From NCBI GenBank assembly GCA_038087875.1, contig CM075989.1, positions 13,518,001 through 13,582,000 of the forward strand: DNA of 64,000 nt. The letters run 5' to 3'. Position numbers and translations under genes: made by a program. Origin of the DNA: Malacoraja senta (lineage: Eukaryota). This document shows positions 1,302 to 40,045 of the stretch, piece by piece; position 1 is the stretch's first letter; the number at the start of each line of letters is the position of its first letter. The notes beneath the pieces are model-generated. The model was not told the DNA's origin. It ran no database searches and saw only the letters and a program-made list of their open reading frames with translations.

Positions 1302-2518
1302 ATTTTCCCAGATTACACCGCAGCGGTGGCTAAAAAGTGAGCGGCCTTCCATGAAGTTAAGCGGCTACTCCGGACCTGCCAGGGCATAAAGTTTGGAATC
1401 CTGTACCCTGCGACTCTCCGTATCTCTTGTCGACCGGCCAAGATAAGCGGTTTGGAGACCCGTCGGAGGCGGTGGACTACATCAGGAAGAATCTTAAGCC
1501 CCAAGACTGAGATATCGACATACTCGTATTAGCGGCTAACTGGTGTTGGCTAACCAGCACTGATAGCCAAGTGCTGGCAGCTAGTGCAGCGGACTGGCAA
1601 AGAGTCGAGTTGTAGGGTAAAGTTATGTTTCGAGTTTGACTTTATTTCAGTATTCAACTATCATATTCCCAAATTTACATGTAATGTTGCCTTTATTGTT
1701 TAATACAGATGTGTTTCAATAATGACTAATCCATCTGAAAAATATTTATTTTATATTCTATAAGGACACTTATTGTTTGGAAATTATCCTGATGACCGAG
1801 TTTCACAGACCTATAAGGGGACTGCTATGATAACTGATGTACAGAGGTTAATGCACATATTTTTCAATCAGAAATATTGTAAGTTCATTGTAATATAATC
1901 TTTATAAGATTATAGTTCACCCTGTGTAGGGCTTATTGTTAGAGGTTTTTTTTAATATGGTTATTTGCTACGTTACATTGGCAGTGGGGAATGCGATCTC
2001 TAGGGTACTGGTAGATCAGCAGTGGTTTTTAAGGCTCTGTTTTTTGTTTGTAGGCAGGGACTTTATTGTTTTTTTACTATTTTACTACCCTGTAAAAATT
2101 GGATGAAAACAAAATAAGGACTACGTTTGCTTTTCGAGTTGGAATATAAAGGGAATTAATAATCCAGCAGGGTCTTTGAACATTTAAAATTTCTGAAATC
2201 TGATATTATTTTCCTTCAGGAAACTCACCTCCGATCAAGTGAACATGTGAAATTGAAAAAAGCCTGGATAGGTCAAATATTCTGCTCCAAAAATGAGTTT
2301 AGATCACGAGGCACAGCTATTTTAATCAGGAAGGGGATTCCAGTCATCCAATATATCGACCATCACCGACCCCAGGAGAAGGTTTGTAGTTGTAACATGC
2401 AATCTATATGGCACACAGGTTGCACTAGCCAATATATATGGACCAAATTGGGACGACCCATCATTTTTCTCTAGCTTCATAACATCCCTCCCAAATCTCA
2501 AAGGCCACCAACTGATAT
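1302..2518 (+). mobile_element. Degenerate L1 LINE, 5' part (ORF1 C-terminus, spacer, ORF2 endonuclease N-terminus)
   Basis: ORF1 IFPDYTAAVAKK*AAFHEVKRLL...GIKFGILYPATLRI. Endonuclease motifs SWNIKG, DIIFLQETHL and ANIYGPN. Stops and frameshifts present. Confidence 0.9.
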
Positions 2519-3311
2519 TGAAAAAGTTACTTTTATAACTACTAAACCAGGTTCGCTTCTCAATAAACAGACACCACACAAACTGTTTGGTAGACCAGTT
2601 CAAAACTTTACTTAACATCGGCCGATGGAAGGGAGCGAGAATTCCAGCTAAGTGACCAATGTAGACACTCGACTGTCCTCGGTCCCCTTCTCTGAACAAC
2701 AGAATTACATCGCATTATATAGTGTTTCTTTGTCACATTAGCACATTCCACAGACATTAGTCGTGGTCAGAGGTACAGGAAAAGGCATCACATCAAAGGC
2801 CTTTTGTTTACAGGTTATGATATACTAAAAACATTGGCCATTTGTTTTAGGTCATTTTATCTTCAAAGAGATCACCCTAGCTCGTTCGCTGTTTCCTCTC
2901 TGTCACTTGGTCCTTCATAAACATAGGCCATTTGTTTTATGGCATCTTATCTTTCCACTTCCCTGGATCCTCTCTCATCACTTCGCCCCTCCTAAACATT
3001 GGTCATTTGGTTTACGGCATCTTACTTCAAAGATGTGACTAGCTGTTTCTCTCTTCCTTTATTGCCTCCTCCCCCAGAAACATTGGTCATTTGGTTCATG
3101 GCATCTTACTTCAAAGATGTGACTAGCTGTTTCTTTCTCTGTCACTTCCTCACTTGGGAGACAATGTTATGGTATTTATTATCTCAATACCCCAAAACCC
3201 GAGGCAACTTAACTTGCCTTTCTGTATTATTCTACTGGAGAAAAGCCTGATTTGAGACTAAATATAAGCTGTAAGCTTTTCTTATATTTTTAACATAATT
3301 CAGCTTTATCA
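2519..3311 (-). repeat. 3' LTR of the ERV
   Basis: Direct repeat of 7157-7949. Differences seen by eye at 2763/7401, 2884/7522 and 2952/7590. Confidence 0.95.
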
Positions 3312-3323
3312 TTCCATCCTTTT
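3312..3323 (-). other. Polypurine tract of the ERV
   Basis: Minus strand AAAAGGATGGAA directly precedes the TG of the 3' LTR. Confidence 0.7.
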
Positions 3324-3574
3324 ATCAAAATCTTGATAATAACTACAGTCCTTGCCGAGTACATACGAAAGACCATAAGCATCTCATCAGGCAAATTATC
3401 TCACTGTCTGTAGTCAGGGTATCTTTGCTGCATTTGTCATGTTTGACTCCAATCTTGTTTAAAAGGATGTGTGTACCATCCTTTAAATGTGGGTTAGTCC
3501 GCAAGTTTGCCATTCTGAAGAAAGTCCAGTCCATGTGGGCCACCCCAGAATAAAAGAGGGTCAATAGCTCCACA

Positions 3575-3850
3575 AACCGTTCACAGTCAATCAAATGTAT
3601 CCAACGACGACGATCTTCAATCTTCACAGCAGTTTATGTTGTTGATAGCACTTGGTTTTTCCTTTCAACACAATCTCAATTTCTTCTTGTCCCAGCACAT
3701 GGTCATTTTGTAGCCTTTATGGACTCGTCCCTGTGCTCACAGCTCCTCTAACCTGGGAATGCAGATCTGGCAAGACCTGGGTTAATTGCTGTCCATACAT
3801 AATTAGTTAATTGCCCAGGGCCTGTAGTTGGCTTCCCCCCACTCTCCAGG
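3575..3850 (-). pseudogene. Degenerate C-terminal part of retroviral integrase
   Basis: QVLSTT*TAVKIEDRRRWIHLIDC matches the class I (GPY)xVLLTTxTAVKxxxxxxWIH motif. LHSQV lies upstream. Confidence 0.7.
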
Positions 3851-4930
3851 GGGTGGGCACAGCAGCCTTTCCTGTATCAATAAAAAAGTTGTAAATTCTG
3901 TTTCTCTGGCTGCAGTTGAATGACCCCAATCTACTCTGAAGAAGGGCTTCGGCCCAAAATGATGCCTATTTCCTTCGCTCCTTTGATGCTGCTTCATCCC
4001 CTGAGTTTCTCCAGCACTTTTGTCTACCTTTGATTTTCCAGCATCTGCAGTTCCTTCTTAAACACTTCTCTGTGAACTTATTCTTTAATCCGATTATATC
4101 TGAAGAGGCTCTCCCCACCTAAATATTAAATTCTCCAAATATGTTCTCTTCCCCAATCTACTTATCTTCTCACCTTTTATCCCTCATTATGAGATCCCTC
4201 AAACCCCCTTTTGTAAGCCATAAGACAATTTTACATGTACATTCATTTCCCTTACACAGCACATGCTTCAACATCTTTGTTCGTCTGCAGACCGTAATCT
4301 TGCTTCATTTGCATTTTAAAGGACAACCTCTGTTATCACATCAAAACAATCTTTCCCAAAAGAACTCACTCAGAATCAGTAATCAATAATACATTTTCTT
4401 TTTCTCTGTAATTTTGACATTTCCAATCTCATTTAACACTTTAATTGGGATGAGTCTCTTTTTGAACTCGGCTCAAAAGATTTATAACAACCAACACATT
4501 TTATCATTTGAGTATAGCTCCACCCCCCATTCATGGCAGTGTCTTAAAGGAACACACCATAACCTGCCTGTTCATTTGCATTTTAAAGGACAAACTGTTC
4601 TTAAAGGGACTCACACCTTTGCTCATTGCTTCAAATTTCACACATTCCACATAGAAAAAACATTGTTTTACAAGCAGTACATACACACAAAAAAATTGTT
4701 TTACCAGCAGTATATAATATTTCATCTTCAAAGACGTCTCTTTGTAATTTACTTTCCCTTTTTCTGACAAGACTTCTGTTTACCAGAATCCTGGTTACCT
4801 AACCCTAATTGGACTTTGATCCAGATCATGATTAGTCAGACTCCCCGTGACTTTTCAGTCTCCCTATCCTATCCTCATTTCTCCACCGAATTTGTCTTCA
4901 TCCCCAATTTTTCTATAACATAGTTGCTTG

Positions 4931-5545
4931 TCAGAAAAAGGATTCCCCCGGGGTAATTTTGTTTTGCAATGCCCCATAGGCTCTTTCCACCATCCCAGAT
5001 GCCTGTGGGTGATGTACACAGTGAAATTGCTGTCGGATATAAAAATGTGTACATATTTCCTTATTAATAGTGGCAATAAAATGGGGACCATTGTCCAAGC
5101 TTATGACAGTAGGTAGGCCAAACCTGGGAATAACTTCCCTTAACACCAATGTTACTGTAGTCTTAGCAGTATCATTAGTGGTTGGTAGAGCTTCAATCCA
5201 CCTGCTAAATAAATCTAAAATAACTAAGCAATATTTATAACACTGGGCCCTTGGCATTTCAATAAAATCAATCTGTATGCATTCAAACGGTCGTGATGGC
5301 ATTGGTGTCACCCCTGAGGGTATCCTAATTGGTTTGCCTGGATTATTTCGTTGGCAAATTTTACATTCAGAGGCCTGCTTCAGTGCCTCTTGCCGGATTT
5401 TTAGGTGCCACCACGTTTCCTTTGTCATCCTTATCATTCCCTCCTTACCAGCATGGGTAAGTGAGTGAATATATGTTAGTAAAACAGGTAAAAATGCATC
5501 AGATACACCAACTTGTCCAAGCGGGGTGAGCCGAATCAATGGCAC
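4931..5545 (-). pseudogene. Retroviral integrase HHCC zinc finger and DDE core, 3' truncated
   Basis: HSLTHAG...CKICQRNN; PFECIQIDF; LVILDLFSRWIEALP; EVIPRFGLPTVISLDNGPHF; HPQASGMVER. Confidence 0.92.
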
Positions 5546-6482
5546 AGCCCTCTTGTTTCCATAGTTGTTTTGGGTTATCAGAGGCGTCCCTCTGTAATGT
5601 ACATACTTCCCTCATGTTTGGCAGGACCGTTCTATTTGCTAGCATCTGTTTACCTGCTGTCACTAAGCATTTGTATGCATAGGCTGCTTGTTTGGCTACA
5701 CTATCGGCAAATGCATTGCCTTTTGTTATAGGGTCCCCAGCACCAGTGTGTGCAGCACATTTAATAATGGTCAGCTGTTCTGGTATCATCAATGCCTTAA
5801 GCAAATAATGCACAGAAAGGCATTCCCGTGCTCCCAATCCTGGGGAGCTTTGTAAGGTCAGAACTTCAAGGTATAGGGATATTACTGACGGAGCTGTCAG
5901 AGGTAAGTATGCCATCGCTACTGGTAGGACGTAGGGAGGTGGACATCTCCCAGGATTATCTAACTCCTCATCTTCACTACCAAACAGGGTCGTCGTGCCA
6001 GACATGAAGTCTCCTCCAGAGGATTTACCAGTACTGAGGTTATTTTTACTAACCATCACCTGTTGCTCACCTCCTGCCTGTCTCTTAATTATTTTCTCTT
6101 GTTCCTCCGCCCACTGGCATTCTAGTTGCAATACTTTCCATCCTTTCATAGTGCCATCCTTATTTCGTAACTCTATCCCTTGTTTACATGCAGTATCCAT
6201 CCAACTTCGATCTCTACTCTCCTCATGCTTCTTCTCTGCTTCTGCTTTCCACGTTTTAATTCCCTTCTTCCATTTCTTTCCTGCCTTCCTTTCCCATATC
6301 AACATTTCTGCTTTTTTAATTGTCTCGACATTCCATGTGCCCCCTACTGGCCAGGCTTCATCCCCCAACCGTTTGGTCAACTTGTAACTTAACATTCTAA
6401 ATTTCTTATTATACTTAGGATTCAAATAACACATATGTTGGACGGGGGTTCCCCCCTCACTGTTATCCAAAGCATTCCCCAT
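5499..6482 (-). CDS. Chimeric ERV ORF (327 aa): Gag matrix plus PPPY late domain fused in frame to RNase H C-terminus and IN linker
   Basis: Starts MGN (myristoylation-type). Has WPVGGTW matrix motif and CPPPYV, then LLKALMIPEQLTIIKCAAHT...GNAFADSVAKQAA (RNase H). No CA, NC, PR or RT. Confidence 0.75.
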   Translation of the reverse strand: MGNALDNSEGGTPVQHMCYLNPKYNKKFRMLSYKLTKRLGDEAWPVGGTWNVETIKKAEMLIWERKAGKKWKKGIKTWKAEAEKKHEESRDRSWMDTACKQGIELRNKDGTMKGWKVLQLECQWAEEQEKIIKRQAGGEQQVMVSKNNLSTGKSSGGDFMSGTTTLFGSEDEELDNPGRCPPPYVLPVAMAYLPLTAPSVISLYLEVLTLQSSPGLGARECLSVHYLLKALMIPEQLTIIKCAAHTGAGDPITKGNAFADSVAKQAAYAYKCLVTAGKQMLANRTVLPNMREVCTLQRDASDNPKQLWKQEGCAIDSAHPAWTSWCI

Positions 6483-7138
6483 AGCTAGATAGAGAAAAAG
6501 AGAGAGAGAGAAAAAAAAAATAAAAGAAAAAGAAAAAGAAAAAGAAAGCAGACCGCTTGATTCCGAAACGTGCAAAATATATCAACCAGGCCGACTCGCG
6601 ACTCGAGACCCCAGTTTCTCAATTTGGCTGACTGTTTAACTTTGTAATATACAACGCCACTTATTTCTCAATCCGACAACTCCCCGGATGTTTCAATAAG
6701 CCAGACGCACACCTCACCTCCCGTATCTCAACCCGACAAAACACGGATGTCTCAACGAGGCCGATAAGCCCTTAGTAGAGAGAAAAGAAAAAAACAAAGA
6801 GAGATAGACAGAGAGAGAGAAAGAGAAACCACTCACGTCCTTCTTAACAAGATACACAAGCCCTTCTTAAAAATACAAGCACAAGTCTGTCTTAAAAATA
6901 CATACACAATCCCCACTAAAAAAACCCTATAAAGCCCAACTGGTCTTACCTTAGTCTGTTGCTAAGAACCTCGGCAGGGAACCTGGATCAACCTCTGATG
7001 AAGGATCACAGACGTTCCCGGGAGTTTCTAGGGAGTCGGTCTTACAAGGGGGCCGATAGAGCTCAGTTATCTCCCTTCCAATCCCGGCAACCTCTGCAAC
7101 CTCTTGCACAGTCAGCCGTTGATGTGGTCCCAGCGAGG

Positions 7139-7155
7139 CCTGCATAACTACGCCA
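7139..7155 (-). other. Primer binding site, tRNA-Ser-like
   Basis: Minus strand TGGCGTAGTTATGCAGG lies 1 nt after the 5' LTR. It is an imperfect complement of the recalled vertebrate tRNA-Ser 3' end CCTGCCGACTACGCCA. Confidence 0.75.
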
Positions 7156-7156
7156 A

Positions 7157-7949
7157 TGAAAAAGTTACTTTTATAACTACTAAACCAGGTTCGCTTCTCA
7201 ATAAACAGACACCACACAAACTGTTTGGTAGACCAGTTCAAAACTTTACTTAACATCGGCCGATGGAAGGGAGCGAGAATTCCAGCTAAGTGACCAATGT
7301 AGACACTCGACTGTCCTCGGTCCCCTTCTCTGAACAACAGAATTACATCGCATTATATAGTGTTTCTTTGTCACATTAGCACATTCCACAGACATTAGTC
7401 ATGGTCAGAGGTACAGGAAAAGGCATCACATCAAAGGCCTTTTGTTTACAGGTTATGATATACTAAAAACATTGGCCATTTGTTTTAGGTCATTTTATCT
7501 TCAAAGAGATCACCCTAGCTCTTTCGCTGTTTCCTCTCTGTCACTTGGTCCTTCATAAACATAGGCCATTTGTTTTATGGCATCTTATCGTTCCACTTCC
7601 CTGGATCCTCTCTCATCACTTCGCCCCTCCTAAACATTGGTCATTTGGTTTACGGCATCTTACTTCAAAGATGTGACTAGCTGTTTCTCTCTTCCTTTAT
7701 TGCCTCCTCCCCCAGAAACATTGGTCATTTGGTTCATGGCATCTTACTTCAAAGATGTGACTAGCTGTTTCTTTCTCTGTCACTTCCTCACTTGGGAGAC
7801 AATGTTATGGTATTTATTATCTCAATACCCCAAAACCCGAGGCAACTTAACTTGCCTTTCTGTATTATTCTACTGGAGAAAAGCCTGATTTGAGACTAAA
7901 TATAAGCTGTAAGCTTTTCTTATATTTTTAACATAATTCAGCTTTATCA
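7157..7949 (-). repeat. 5' LTR of the ERV
   Basis: 793-bp repeat adjacent to the PBS. TATATAA on minus strand at 7353-7359, with tandem repeats upstream in U3. Confidence 0.95.
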
Positions 7950-7953
7950 ATAT

Positions 7954-10900
7954 TAGGGGGGGGGGGGGGGTTTAATTGTGTATTACATCCTTATTTGGAC
8001 AGACCCAACCCAAGACCTAATAGTAAAATTTCAAATTCTGGTGCTGTTATCAATTCATTTATAGAATCCTATACACTTTTTGACCCCTGGAGAAGAAATA
8101 ACCCAAAAACAAAACAATATTCCTTTTTTTCCCCAGTACACCATTCTTATTCAAGAATTGATTCTTGTAGATAGTAGGATCCTTTCCATGGTTAAGGGGA
8201 GCCAGTATAACAGTATTGTTATTTCTAACCACAGCCCTGTGCAACTAGATATAGGCTTCCTAGACTGCCCTAGACCTCGACGCACTTGGCAGTTTGGTCC
8301 TCTGTTGCTATCTAGGGAGTCCTTCAAAAGATTTCTTTCTCAACAAATTTGGAAATTAATAATACTCCGGACATGCACTTAGCGACTATCTGGGAGGCTC
8401 TTAAAGCCTACCTTCGAGGCCAGATAATCTCATATACAGCATAGGAGAGGAAGAAATATAAACAACGTCTGACAGAACTGTCCCACAGTATAGCAGAAAT
8501 AGACCGTTTGTATGCCAATTCGCCAACACATGAAGTTTACAAGGAGAAATTATTACTTAAGACGGAATTTGACAATTTATCCACCAGACAAGCAGAACAA
8601 TTAATCTCCAAATCAAAGCAAATTTTCTATGAACACGGAGAAAAGGCAGGAGAACATTTAGCTCACCAGATCAGACAGTCCACAGCCGCCAGTACTATTC
8701 CTAAAATTCTAACATCACCGGGGATAAAGACTACTGATCCAGATGCCATCAATGACCAGTTTAAGCAGTTTTATTTTTCCCTCTATGCTTCAGAACCACC
8801 CAGTGATCTGTCATGTATTCCTGCCTTCTTAGACAGCCTGTACATCCCAGAAATTACTTCAGAGGACCAAGCACAAATTGACAGGGAAGTATCAACCGAA
8901 GAAATATTACCATTAAATCGATGCAGAGCAACAAAGCTCCAGGACCAGACAGTTTCCCAATTGAAATATACAAAGAATTTGTAATCAAGCTGGCTCCAAC
9001 ACTTAAATTGTTGTATCAGGAAATGTTTAGCCAACAGAAACTACCTCAAACAATGTGGCAGGCAACCATATCAGTCCTACTTAAAAAAGATAAAGACCCA
9101 CTATTGTGTGGTTCATACCGCCCTGTAAGCTTGTTGAATTGTGATTATAAAATCCTCACAAAAATTTTAGCCACCTGTCTTGAAACAGTAGTCTCCAAAG
9201 TTATTAACCCTGACCAAACTGGATTCATACCGGGCAGGCAGTCGTTCTATAACATGCGGGGCCTACTTAATGTATTGTATACACCTCACACCACAGAACA
9301 ATCGGAAGTAATTATTACTTTAGACGCCGAGAAGCTATTCGACCGTGTCGAATGGCAATATTTGTTTGCTATTCTCAAACGATTTGGCTTTGGTCCATCA
9401 TTTTTATCATGGATTAAAATATTATATTTTGCGCCAACGGCAGCTGTGCGGACCAACAATATAATCTCTGACTACTTCCAGCTCTATAGGGCTGCAGCCT
9501 TTCTCCCTACTTATTTGATTTGGCAATAGAACCACTTGCTATAGCTCTTAGGACAGAAGATGGTATCAGAGGTATCTTTCGAAGTGGTAAATCTCACAAA
9601 GTATCGCTTTTCACGGACGACCTGCTGGTATATATATCCAACCCAACTGACTCCATACCAAAGCTACTGCATATATTAGAGAATTTTGGCCGCCTGTCAG
9701 GTTATTCGATAAATTACTCAAAGAGCTTGCTTTTCCCAATCAATCACACTGACGCCGACTACTCCAGCTTCCCATTTAAGTTTGAGAAAAATGTATTTAC
9801 TTACCTGGGAATTAAAGTCACCCATACCATGGGAGGTTTACACAACCACAACTTTAAATCATTATTAGAACGAACAACACAGGACTTCAAAAAATGGTCA
9901 ACACTACCACTCTCATTAGTAGGCCGCATCAATATCGTTAAGATGACAGTTTTACCTAGATTTCTTTATCTTTTGCAAATGATCCCCATATTCATACCTC
10001 GGACAACTTTTCAGCAATTAGATAGACTAATCTCATCATTTATTTGGAACAATTCAAATCCCAGGATGAATAAAATATACTTGGAAGTTCCTAAGAAGGC
10101 GGGTGGTCTAGGTTTGCCTAACTTTATCTATTACTACTGGGCTGCAAATATTGTAAAACTTTTACATTGGATATATTCATATGAGAGTAAACAGGGCACA
10201 GACTGGGCACAGATGGAACTCCTATCTGATCCACTACCGAAAATCACCTGCTCACTACCTTATAATCGTAAAATACAAATGACAAACCCGGTGGTTAAAA
10301 CCTTGCTTAAAATATGGCTACAGTTCAGGAAACATTTTGGACTAAAAGGTACCAGCAGGCTTTTCCCGGTGGTATAAATCAATTTTTTACATCCTCCATG
10401 TTAGATACTGCGTTTTCATATTGGCATAGGAATGGACTGGTATATTTTTGTGACTTGTTTACTGACGGAACGGTTACTTCCTTTGAAACGCTTGCTGAAG
10501 ACCACAATATACCCAGATCTAATTTCTTCAGGTATCTTCAAATACGTAGCTTTGCTAAAAAAAAGTGTTTCCCTCATTTCCTTATCTGTCCACTAAGAGC
10601 CAATTAGACACTATTTTGGAGTTGGACCCATTTGACAAGAAACGTGTTTCAGCAATTTACATATTAATACAGGAATTAAAACAGATAACCTGGGACAAAA
10701 CTAAAACGGCATGGGAGAGGGACCTGGGTGTAGAGCTTTCTGATGAGGCGTGGCGAGAGCTTAATTCGTATACACACCTCTTCGCTGTGTATACCCCATG
10801 GGTTGATCCAATTTAAAGTGCTCCACCGTCTTCATTATTCAAGAGACAAACTTGCCAGAATCTTTTCTACCACAGATCCTGGCTGCCCTAGATATTGCCA

Positions 10901-11110: not shown

Positions 11111-11667
11111 TTTTTTTTTTCATTTTTTTTTTTTCATTTTTCATATCTATGCCAATGTAGCGCTAAAAGTTTTGCATAACCTTACTCAGGTTTTTCCCGT
11201 CATCGATCTTGTCAAGTTTCCTTCAGATTTGATGTTATATTTCATGTTATTGATATTTAAAGGTTTAAAAAAAAGTCGACTTTAAAAAGATTTTTACTGT
11301 TAAATCCTTGCAGTCCCAGCTTACAACAAACTTCCATACAAAGTTGCAATCCAAGAACACTCTGTGCTTCCACCAAGTTTTCACCTGAATGGAATCTCAC
11401 AGTCCCCCGACATTTGCAACAATGTTGCCATCATAGAACACTAACTCCTGCTACTGCCAGTACAGGAGGGGAGGGTCCAGGGGAAGTGGAATTGGAAGTG
11501 CTGGGGGAGGCAGGGGAAGTGGAATTGGATTTTTTTTAAAGTCCAGTGCTGAGGAGGCAGGGGAATGGTGGAATCTTATGTTGGGGAATGGGTTGCGTTG
11601 GGGGACCAGGCCTCCCCTGGGGCCATGGGTGAGTGGTGAAATATTGCGTTGGTCCTACTTGGTCTAG
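11103..11667 (+). mobile_element. Non-autonomous Helitron-like element, tandem copy 1
   Basis: Diverged duplicate of 11668-12296. Ends in CTTGGTCTAG|T. The 5' boundary is approximate. Confidence 0.65.
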
Positions 11668-12296
11668 TATACCATTAAAGTCTTCTATTGTTTCTGTGTG
11701 TGTGTGATGGTATCTACACCAAAAAGGTATACGGTAGCGCTACATTTTTTGCAGAACCTTACTCTGCTTTTTCCCGTCGTTGCCCTTGTCAAGTTTCCTT
11801 CAGATCTGATGTTATATTTCACAAGTTATTAATATTTAATGGTTTAAAAAAGCCAACTTTAAAAAGATTTTTACTGTTAAATCCTTGCAGCCACAGCCTA
11901 CAACAAAATTCCATACAAAATTGCAATCCAGGAACACTCTGTGCTTCCACCTGAATGGAATCTCACAGTCCCCCAATATTTGCAACAATGTTGCCATCCG
12001 AGAACCCTTACTCCTGTTCCTGCCAACGCAGGAGGGGGAGGGGCCAGGGGAAGTGGATTTGGAATTGGAAACGCTGGGTGAGGCAGGGGAAGTGCAATTG
12101 GATTTTTTAAAAGTCCAGTGCTGGGGGAGGCAGGGGAGTTGTGGAATCTTACGTTGCGGGAACGGGTTGTGCTGGGGGATCAGGCCTGCAGTGGGGGCTA
12201 TGGGTAAGTGGTGGAATATTGCGTTGGGGGAACGGGTTGCGTTGGGGGACCAGGCCTCCCGTCTGACCAGGACCCAACTGGTCCCACTTGGTCTAG
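11668..12296 (+). mobile_element. Non-autonomous Helitron-like element, tandem copy 2
   Basis: 3' GGACCCAACTGGTCCC hairpin followed by ACTTGGTCTAG|T. Same termini as the elements at 36520 and 45626. Confidence 0.7.
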
Positions 12297-37780: not shown

Positions 37781-38739
37781 AATGTTGATTGAAGCATGAA
37801 TATTAGCACATTCTGTTGTCCAGAATGATACCATAGAACTGTGATGGGCCCCATTTTAACAACTAATCGAAAGGCAGTAAATTCTTTTGCGATGCTCCCT
37901 TTCAATGTCGGCTTATATTCTTGAATTTGCGTGTCTGGAATGGCAGTTGTGGATGTTTACTAAATGATTGAAGGCTTAAAACCTGCACATGATTGGATGG
38001 AGGATTAATCCTAGTAGTGTTAATGCAGCTGTTGCTATCTTGGATATTTTCTCCATTTCTGAGGCGCTTACTTACAGTATTTCTAACAGTTCTTTTCCAA
38101 TATAATAAACCCTTGTTTTTTACAGAACTCTTTATAACAGATTTTTCTTATAGCGGACTGGCCTATCGACTTATCCTGCCAGACAGGGCTGCTAATGCCA
38201 CCCCAGCCCGTACCATCTACCCAGCCCCTCCTGCCGCTGTACTCATCCTGACCGATCACAGGCTATGCCTGCCTCCAACGCACCACTGCAGTCATCACCA
38301 CCGCCGCTAACACGGCTGTCTATACCACATCCACCATCACCACCACCACTGTAGTTGTCTCAGCTACCATCACCACTGCCGCAGTTGCTGCTGCCACTAC
38401 CACAGCCACCATCACAGTCACCATTGCTGCCACTACAACCGCCGCCACCTCAGTCATCACTACCACGGCTGTCGCTAACACCACCATCATCATCACCACC
38501 ACCACCATCACCATACCGCCAAGCCTTGCCTGGACTCCGGCCGCCCGTGGGCAGTGACCAATGACTGCACCGATCCTCGCCTCTTCCCTGGCCATCATCT
38601 CGGCAAGATTCCGGGTCCAGTTATAGACCGAGACTCTAAAAAATGGTCTGGACCTGAAACATCACCTATCCATGTTCCCCAACACTTTATATCCTTTAGT
38701 GTATTATCCAGCAGAAAGAACTGCAGTGCTGGTTTAAAT

Positions 38740-40045
38740 ACGTCGAACAATCCCTGTTCCAGGCGTACACTGGACCTATCCCCGAGCTCTTCCTCCGCTA
38801 CATTGACAACTGCATTGGTGCTACCTCCTGCACCCATGCAGAACTCACTGACTTCATCAACTTCACCACTAATTTCCATCCTGCACTCAAATTCACTTGG
38901 ACCATCTCCAACATCCCCCTATCATTTCTAGATCTCACCGTCTCCATCACAGGAAACAGACTATTGACTGACATCTACTACAAACCTACTGACTCCCATA
39001 GCTATCTTGATTACACTTCTTCCCACCCTGCTTCCTGTAAAGACTCTATCCCCAACTTCCAATTCCTCCGTCTACTCGGTATCTGCGCCCAGGATGAGGT
39101 GTTCCATACCAGGTCATCGGAGATGTTGTCATTCTTTAGGAAACGAGGGTTCCCCTCTTCCATTATAGATGAGGCTCTCACTAGAGTCTCCTCGATATCC
39201 CGGAGCTACACTCTTACTCCCCCTCCTCCCATTCGTAACAAGGACAGAGTCCCCCTAGTCCTCACCTTCCACCCCATGAGCTGTCGCATACAGCATATAA
39301 TCGTCCACCATTTTCGCCACCTCCAACAGGATCCCACTACTGGCCACATCTCCCCATCTCCACCCCTTTCTGCTTTCTGCTTTCCGCATAGACCGTTCCC
39401 TCCCTGGTCAACTCGTCCCTTCCAACCCAAACCATCCCCTCTCCAGGTACTTCCTCTTGCAACCGCAGGAGATGTAACACCTGTCCCTATACCTCCCCCC
39501 TCGACTCCGTCCAAGGACCCTGACAGTCTTTTCAGGTGGGGCAGAGTTTCACTTGTACCTCCTCCAACCTCATCTACTGTATCCGCTGTTTCAGGTGGGG
39601 ACTCCTATATATCATCAAGACCAAGCGCTGGCTCGCCGATTGTTTCACTGAACACCTACGCTCAGTCCGTCTTAACGTACCTGATCTCCCGGTGGCCCAG
39701 CACCTCAACTCACCCTCCCATTCCCAATCTGACCTTTCTGTCCTGGGCCTCCTCCATTGTCAGAGTGAGGCCCAGCGCAAACAGCACCTCATATTTCGCT
39801 TGGGTAGTTTACACCCCAGCGGTTTGAACATTGACCTCTCCAGCTTCAGATAGCCCTTGCTTTCTCTCTCCATCCCCTTCCCCATCCCAGTTTTCCCACT
39901 AGTCATACTGTCTCCGACTACATTATATCTTTATCCCGCCCCCTCCCCTGACATCAGTCTGAAGAAGGGTCTCGACCCGAAACGTCGGCCATTCCTTTTT
40001 TTCCAGAGATGCTGCCTCACGCATTTACTCCAGCATTTTGTGTCA
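38740..40045 (+). mobile_element. 5'-truncated Penelope-like retroelement (RT C-terminus, GIY-YIG endonuclease, terminal repeat)
   Basis: FLRYIDN; HPALKFT; FLDL; DIYYKPTDSHSYL...SSHP; FTCTSSNLIYCIRC...LLYI...EHLRSV. Frameshifted. Confidence 0.92.
39950..39992 (+). ncRNA. Minimal hammerhead ribozyme motif in the Penelope terminal repeat
   Basis: CTGAAGA (39959-39965), A, GGGTC-TC-GACCC stem II, GAAAC, then GTC triplet (39984-39986). Stem I is weak. Confidence 0.6.

Follow-up and report, generated by a model that had tools for sequence, protein, structure and literature searches.

A non-autonomous endogenous retrovirus family in skates, very probably copied in trans by a related class I-like retrovirus

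We analysed a stretch of 64,000 nucleotides (nt) from the skate Malacoraja senta (GenBank assembly GCA_038087875.1, contig CM075989.1, positions 13,518,001 to 13,582,000 of the forward strand), referred to as the window and numbered from its first letter. It harbors an endogenous retrovirus (ERV) that lies on the minus strand and reads from 7949 to 2519. Two long terminal repeats (LTRs), a target-site duplication (TSD), the primer-binding site (PBS), the leader and the polypurine tract (PPT) are present, and the interior is reduced to the 5' part of gag, the end of RNase H and an integrase gene that is interrupted by non-coding DNA (Table 1). A deletion junction of this element recurs in diverged copies, and similar copies are numerous. 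The element very probably represents a multi-copy, long-lived family of non-autonomous ERVs that is copied in trans by a related, complete class I-like retrovirus.

Table 1. Features of the ERV and of its target site in the window
Feature	Coordinates	Strand	Remarks
Host long interspersed nuclear element (LINE), endonuclease region, target left of the ERV	2163..2514	+	Exo_endo_phos, E 7e-4
Left TSD copy, ATAT	2515..2518	.	4 nt
3' LTR	2519..3311	-	793 nt
Short PPT	3312..3326	-	T run before it
Short 3' segment at env position	3327..3579	-	no env match
Integrase C-terminal half, decayed	3580..3900	-	3900-3700 weak matches only
Host repeat of the LINE or short interspersed nuclear element (SINE) type, very abundant; 3' tail only	3936..4067	+	132 nt; antisense to the provirus
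AT-rich non-coding segment inside integrase	4068..4950	.	matches nothing else in the window
Integrase N-terminal domain and catalytic core	4955..5560	-	Pfam rve, E 5e-18; Integrase_H2C2, E 1e-6
RNase H C-terminal end and linker to integrase	5544..5813	-	frame break near 5540
gag/RNase H deletion junction	5840..5850	-	capsid (CA), nucleocapsid (NC), protease (PR), reverse transcriptase (RT) and most of RNase H gone
gag 5' part	5847..6482	-	open over 212 codons from an ATG-Gly start at 6482; matrix-like domain and PPPY late motif
5' leader	6483..7137	-	presumed packaging region
PBS position	7138..7155	-	opens TGG 1 base past the LTR
5' LTR	7157..7949	-	793 nt
Right TSD copy, ATAT	7950..7953	.	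4 nt
Host LINE ORF2 remainder, decayed, RT; target right of the ERV	7954..10377	+	RVT_1, E 2e-19 and 1.5e-9

On alignment, the LTRs differ at three of 793 positions (2763/7401, 2884/7522 and 2952/7590; divergence 0.38%), the same count that the initial annotation had obtained by eye, and the ATAT duplication that it had described as intact is found on both sides. Read in sense, the LTRs start with TG and end with CA. Their U3 region consists of four imperfect tandem units of 75–90 nt (2813-3147 and 7451-7785), every one of which contains a CCAAT-like box in sense; the 5' LTR also has a TATA-like box at 7359 and, at 7250, a candidate for a poly(A) signal of variant form. The roles of these motifs are putative. 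The LINE endonuclease frame reaches the left TSD copy and picks up again past the right one, and since the frame is continuous across the site the insertion is clean. This LINE (2163-10900) is nearly full length and has several frameshifts. No further copy of the LTR or of the interior lies within the 64-kb window.

The PBS, leader and PPT had been listed as retained, and all three are indeed present by position and composition. The PBS may resemble the 3' end of a tRNA-Ser; a literature search for the PBS motif returned nothing relevant, and there are no tRNA genes in the window. The leader shows the highest CpG observed/expected ratio of the element (0.78 for 6483-7156; the value of the whole window is 0.38). 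Regional CpG ratios gave no useful separation of LTR from interior. A structured export or packaging element is not supported: sense-strand folding placed one of 52 windows below z -2.5, which is chance level. Rfam gave no match over 2400-8100. The Gag part shares 55% over 212 columns with the complete 566-amino acid (aa) Gag P0012, 60% over 104 aa with Rhinoraja P0014 and 83% over 53 aa, up to 5847, with P0013. Past that point P0013, an undeleted gag relative, continues with a capsid-length region and a CCHC knuckle, and the window sequence diverges. In the ESM Atlas the matrix part had no match at all; Gag clusters were returned for P0012 alone, below the recognition threshold.

Gag homology ends at about 5846 and RNase H homology begins at about 5813. 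The gag frame continues into the RNase H end, giving a fusion open reading frame of 327 codons with its stop at 5499-5501. Nine solved structures matched the RNase H end; all are RT/RNase H chains, and one is named XMRV. Queried with Pol and Gag relatives of full length, the interior gave no match to CA, NC, PR or RT, and no env family appeared in the 12 scanned frames overlapping 3302-5100, the integrase frame apart, where weak unrelated matches only were obtained. The Pfam matches to Adeno_E3B, DUF716, DUF7812, DUF7244 and Oleosin were weak, below the cut-off, and were rejected. The earlier statement that the interior lacks CA, NC, PR, RT and env therefore holds, as none of them was matched by the Pol and Gag queries or the frame scans. 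The integrase had been called broken, which is correct for the region past the core, where it is cut off; the N-terminal domain and core, however, are open over about 200 codons with the HHCC and D-D(35)-E residues intact, and share 45% with the Leucoraja Pol P0001.

The gag-RNase H junction is not private to this locus. The protein P0018 has the same junction with the same residues at it and is 79% identical over 108 aa. We also used contigs from four of 24 listed runs (X1 and X2 from organism A, X3 and X9 from organisms B and E, one each), mapped onto 1900-7156; these results rest on the rows listed, and a contig was counted as bridging a junction by a 31-letter rule. Position 5846 is bridged in two of the four runs, i.e. 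in two organisms besides A, by an X3 contig (5755-5983, 88.9% alike) and an X9 contig (5636-5907, 89.0%) with at least 61 letters on either side. Their divergence is about 29 times that of the LTR pair and, judged from these sequences, the gag-RNase H deletion is older than the present insertion. The initial annotation had proposed looking for copies with the same deletions and had named deletions unique to this locus as the outcome that would speak against it; instead, the junction occurs in the diverged copies of X3 and X9 and in P0018, and the non-coding segment in all four runs.

The contigs cover 30 of 30 bins in each of the four runs. The depth of the non-coding segment is of the same order as that of the other interior bins in every run, so the segment belongs to the family. 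Three X1 contigs (4294-4583, 4612-4798 and 3283-3432) show 0, 1 and 0 differences from the window over 290, 187 and 150 nt, the last of them across the border between PPT and LTR. Their depth of 346–364 is 21–38 times that of four lone diverged contigs (27–35 times in X2). Interior bins of X1 range from 375 to 1266 (repeat tail excluded), compared with 16–21 for the flank bins. Because depth is raised in the interior and not in the flanks, these copies sit at other loci. We read the depth, which is not a copy number, as some tens of similar copies. The interior shares 0.68 of its sampled words with organism A, which corresponds to about 98.8% likeness. Organisms B and E contain deep variants with small indels of their own around 4912-4971, and this suggests separate expansions in the two lineages. 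An organism B contig has other letters in the PBS past the first bases (7144-7156), and the primer site is therefore variable within the family. A deep organism B contig is gapped relative to the window over 5411-5564, for which reason the frame break near 5540 may, by sequence comparison, be younger than the gag junction. Few contigs per run are at least 88% alike over the left LINE flank, which identifies the host LINE as a low-copy subfamily. No RNA dataset was among the matches listed.

The initial annotation mentioned about 1 kb of foreign sequence. Non-coding DNA of about this length does interrupt the integrase, but only 132 nt of it can be assigned, to the tail of a very common host repeat, and the remaining 880 nt or so have no match elsewhere in the window. 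The tail has five related copies in the window that are just 63–76% alike, and an attempt to date it with them failed for this reason. Contig depth peaks here, with loose ends at 3935 and 4064-4067, and one X9 contig departs at 3926, beside the tail. An exact 12-nt direct repeat (3924-3935 and 4151-4162), which occurs only twice in the window, flanks the tail together with 83 further bases; it may mark a 215-nt insert as its target duplication, or be a relic of template switching. The non-coding segment has an internal 44-nt repeat (82%; 4288-4329 and 4553-4596), and X1 and X2 contigs show a joint that skips between its two copies. The repeat contains an octamer-like motif. Downstream, the integrase C-terminal domain (3694-3580) carries two stops and one frameshift and shares 59% with P0014 over 39 columns. 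About 270 nt are left between this domain and the 3' LTR.

The element cannot copy itself, since PR, RT, CA and NC are missing and its integrase is incomplete, and in particular the loss of RT and PR means that copying must be in trans. It can be copied by others because LTRs, PBS, leader and PPT are kept. We propose that an old deletion took the region from CA through most of RNase H, that env was lost and that the integrase was interrupted by the non-coding kilobase. In its reduced form, the genome would have held on to all cis signals (LTR promoter, PBS, leader, PPT and LTR ends), and its RNA would have been packaged, reverse transcribed and integrated by proteins that a related and complete class I-like retrovirus supplied. 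Such trans-copying would have been repeated in several host lineages, and the present locus, inserted into a dead LINE, would be one outcome of a late burst. The sequences show the anatomy, the target duplication, the common junction and the multitude of copies; transcription, co-packaging and the nature of the helper are inferred, and the basis for trans copying is the loss of RT combined with many copies.

Several observations weigh against this scheme. Of the organism A contigs listed, none of the deep ones bridges 5846 under the 31-letter rule (X1 record 6 extends 12 letters past it), and contig overlap across the junction near 4950 amounts to only about 20–25 letters (X9 record 28). The rows listed contain no contig that bridges the repeat tail. 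A whole second copy with its own TSD was not among the data, which were contigs and proteins. As to the helper, the claim that an active one copied the element stands for copying in trans (no RT or PR, many copies) but not for the active virus itself. No complete helper was found, only the undeleted gag relative P0013, and the closest integrase is 45–48% identical. Contigs that leave at 5840-5846 are 92.7% alike in X1 (depth 11, below 1% of local depth) and 94.1% alike in X9 (depth 906, about 9% of local depth); they are not sisters of the window copy. In viral and metagenome contigs, 0 of 5 and 0 of 119 pattern matches for integrase relatives were confirmed, and the LTR motif occurred in 0 stretches.

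The initial annotation further held that the interior had decayed before insertion. This agrees with the structure, but less well with the 5' reading frames, which have few point lesions: gag runs for 612 nt with no stop, and RNase H plus integrase core have one frameshift in 850 nt, compared with three lesions in 115 nt of the integrase C-terminal domain (binomial 0.0015 to 0.024 depending on the choice of regions, post hoc). By analogy with other systems, this contrast may reflect either selection on the 5' frames or a mosaic whose 3' part has the greater age, recKoRV, ETn and the bovine D-type element being mosaics of this kind. That the 3' integrase piece predates the 5' part and was acquired by a template switch with the RNA of a decayed ERV seems to us an evenly balanced proposition. 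Selection would mean that the open matrix-PPPY-RNase H frame and the integrase core make a product that helps to keep the family, for example a Gag fragment that promotes the entry of its own RNA into particles or hinders incoming relatives. This idea would add to trans copying rather than replace it, and Rhinoraja P0014, an independent in-frame deletion form from matrix to integrase, fits it. We nevertheless regard such a product as rather unlikely. A mosaic origin accounts for the same contrast, homology of P0018 is lost past residue 108, and about 15% of X3 and X9 depth has a 1-letter insertion at 6042 in gag. Moreover, protein libraries hold open frames only and are biased to in-frame fusions, and particle formation is impossible without CA. 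A broader scenario appears similarly doubtful, namely a parasite lineage that outlived its parent, with a mosaic genome that includes a captured spacer, remobilisation over about 11% divergence, separate bursts in several skate lineages, a selected matrix-PPPY frame and possibly passage between species in helper virions. Such passage is conceivable because one organism has interior copies about 99% alike without the flank alleles of the window. These alleles are absent from the contigs of all four runs, a contig hole being no proof of absence. In organism A, the nearest LINE flank contigs are about 95% alike, in contrast to about 99% for the interior, and a contig hole explains this difference as well as passage between species does.

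An alternative to a late insertion is that an old provirus decayed where it stood and that gene conversion evened out its LTRs. Gene conversion between LTRs is a known phenomenon, and the large lesions of the interior would fit an old provirus. Ageing in place, however, predicts a divergent interior, and the deep X1 contigs described above are nearly identical to it, across the PPT-LTR border as well; the word-based likeness to organism A points the same way. We consider this explanation very improbable. Still less probable is an assembly collapse or segmental duplication behind the LTR identity or the copy number, for although the locus lacks independent confirmation, with its flank alleles in none of the four runs, three LTR differences, a 4-nt TSD, a continuous LINE frame and a flank depth that is not raised along with the interior all oppose it. 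Conversion or collapse had been named beforehand as explanations that would undermine the proposal, and both are unlikely in view of the 0–1 interior differences from deep contigs and the low flank depth.

The element had been called young, which on shark rates may mean about 9 (2–25) million years: a divergence of 0.38% (0.08–1.1%) corresponds to 8.6 (1.8–25) million years at 2.2e-10 per year, the rate assumed in PMC4422223, or to 2.7 million generations at 7e-10 per generation, as measured in PMC10587355. Two dated elephant shark ERVs (0.024 and 0.033) are six to nine times as old as the element. From the LTR clock, about 7 (1.5–21) interior substitutions are expected since insertion. Among the 40 substitution rows listed are eight interior positions at which, in every run, all or most of the depth differs from the window, which is of the same order.

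Mouse ETn and its helper MusD are class II, whereas the skate element is class I-like; they are also active now, and the helper is known. Like the skate element, ETn is env-less, has LTRs and gag/pol pieces around a replaced centre and is copied in trans (PMC10924933). Non-autonomous ERVs are a recognised class (PMC8672886). The koala element recKoRV, with KoRV as helper, and the ERVK[2-1-LTR] D-type of cattle, helped by a C-type, are defective, contain an older, unrelated or degraded piece, exist in many copies and have disrupted frames, as here (PMC6112702; PMC10924933). They keep the gag and env ends, however, and are very recent, while the skate element has the gag 5' end and integrase pieces, no env, and junction-bearing copies about 11% divergent. 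Zebrafish BHIKHARI (Bik-1 and Bik-2) is a fish non-autonomous ERV with gag and no pol or env; unlike the skate element, whose Gag lacks CA and NC, it is related to lokiretroviruses, encodes a whole 617-aa Gag and has a host function (PMC12067270). The CmiERV lineages II and III of the elephant shark, which are related to epsilonretroviruses, are likewise ERVs of cartilaginous fish, but they are defined by pol and env and have LTR divergences of 0.024–0.033, compared with 0.0038, no env and no RT here (PMC4422223). A search by title and start of abstract, with Repbase, Dfam, subscription journals and supplements outside its scope, found no such skate family, and the family may already be in a repeat library.

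Named homologues come from Leucoraja, Amblyraja, Rhinoraja and Scyliorhinus. The integrases of Leucoraja P0001 and Amblyraja P0030 are homologous but of another lineage (45–48%). P0012, P0013 and P0018 have a homologous Gag matrix, undeleted in P0013 and with the junction of the window in P0018, and P0014 of Rhinoraja longicauda (XP_078286998.1) is a Gag matrix homologue of a separate deletion form. The latter is annotated as a 244-aa gene product in which the Gag matrix is fused to the integrase end, and it represents a second deletion-type skate ERV. Class I features are found through the relatives, with MLVIN_C in P0014 and P0002, one zf-CCHC stretch each in P0012 and P0013 and a weak Gag_p30 match (E 0.02) in P0012; the best solved-structure matches of the integrase, which are to foamy virus, count against class I. 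In an integrase tree of 14 rows, with no named reference virus, the element falls into an open fork whose 12 rows are vertebrate and unnamed ones. Since the element is left unplaced, the term epsilon-like remains a guess, although it fits the host group (PMC4977317; PMC4422223).

The pattern of a defective ERV with a helper is known from mouse, cattle and koala, and what is new is a member from a little-studied host group. It extends this pattern to cartilaginous fish, for which the papers we found deal with ERVs that are old and for the most part have env. A working class I-like retrovirus would have lasted in skate germ lines long past the origin of the deletion. Screens that require pol and env, such as that of the elephant shark in PMC4422223, would miss such families as defined units, and recent retroviral activity in these slow-mutating genomes may therefore be underestimated. 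As a natural series, the family lends itself to the question of which cis signals are retained by a parasitic retroviral RNA.

Elsewhere in the window, an open frame of 375 codons is located at 38700-39827. Judged by eye, it resembles a remnant of a Penelope/GIY-YIG-type reverse transcriptase. The segments 11157-11432 and 11734-11998 belong to a tandem duplication that is imperfect (88–94% alike) and about 577 nt long.

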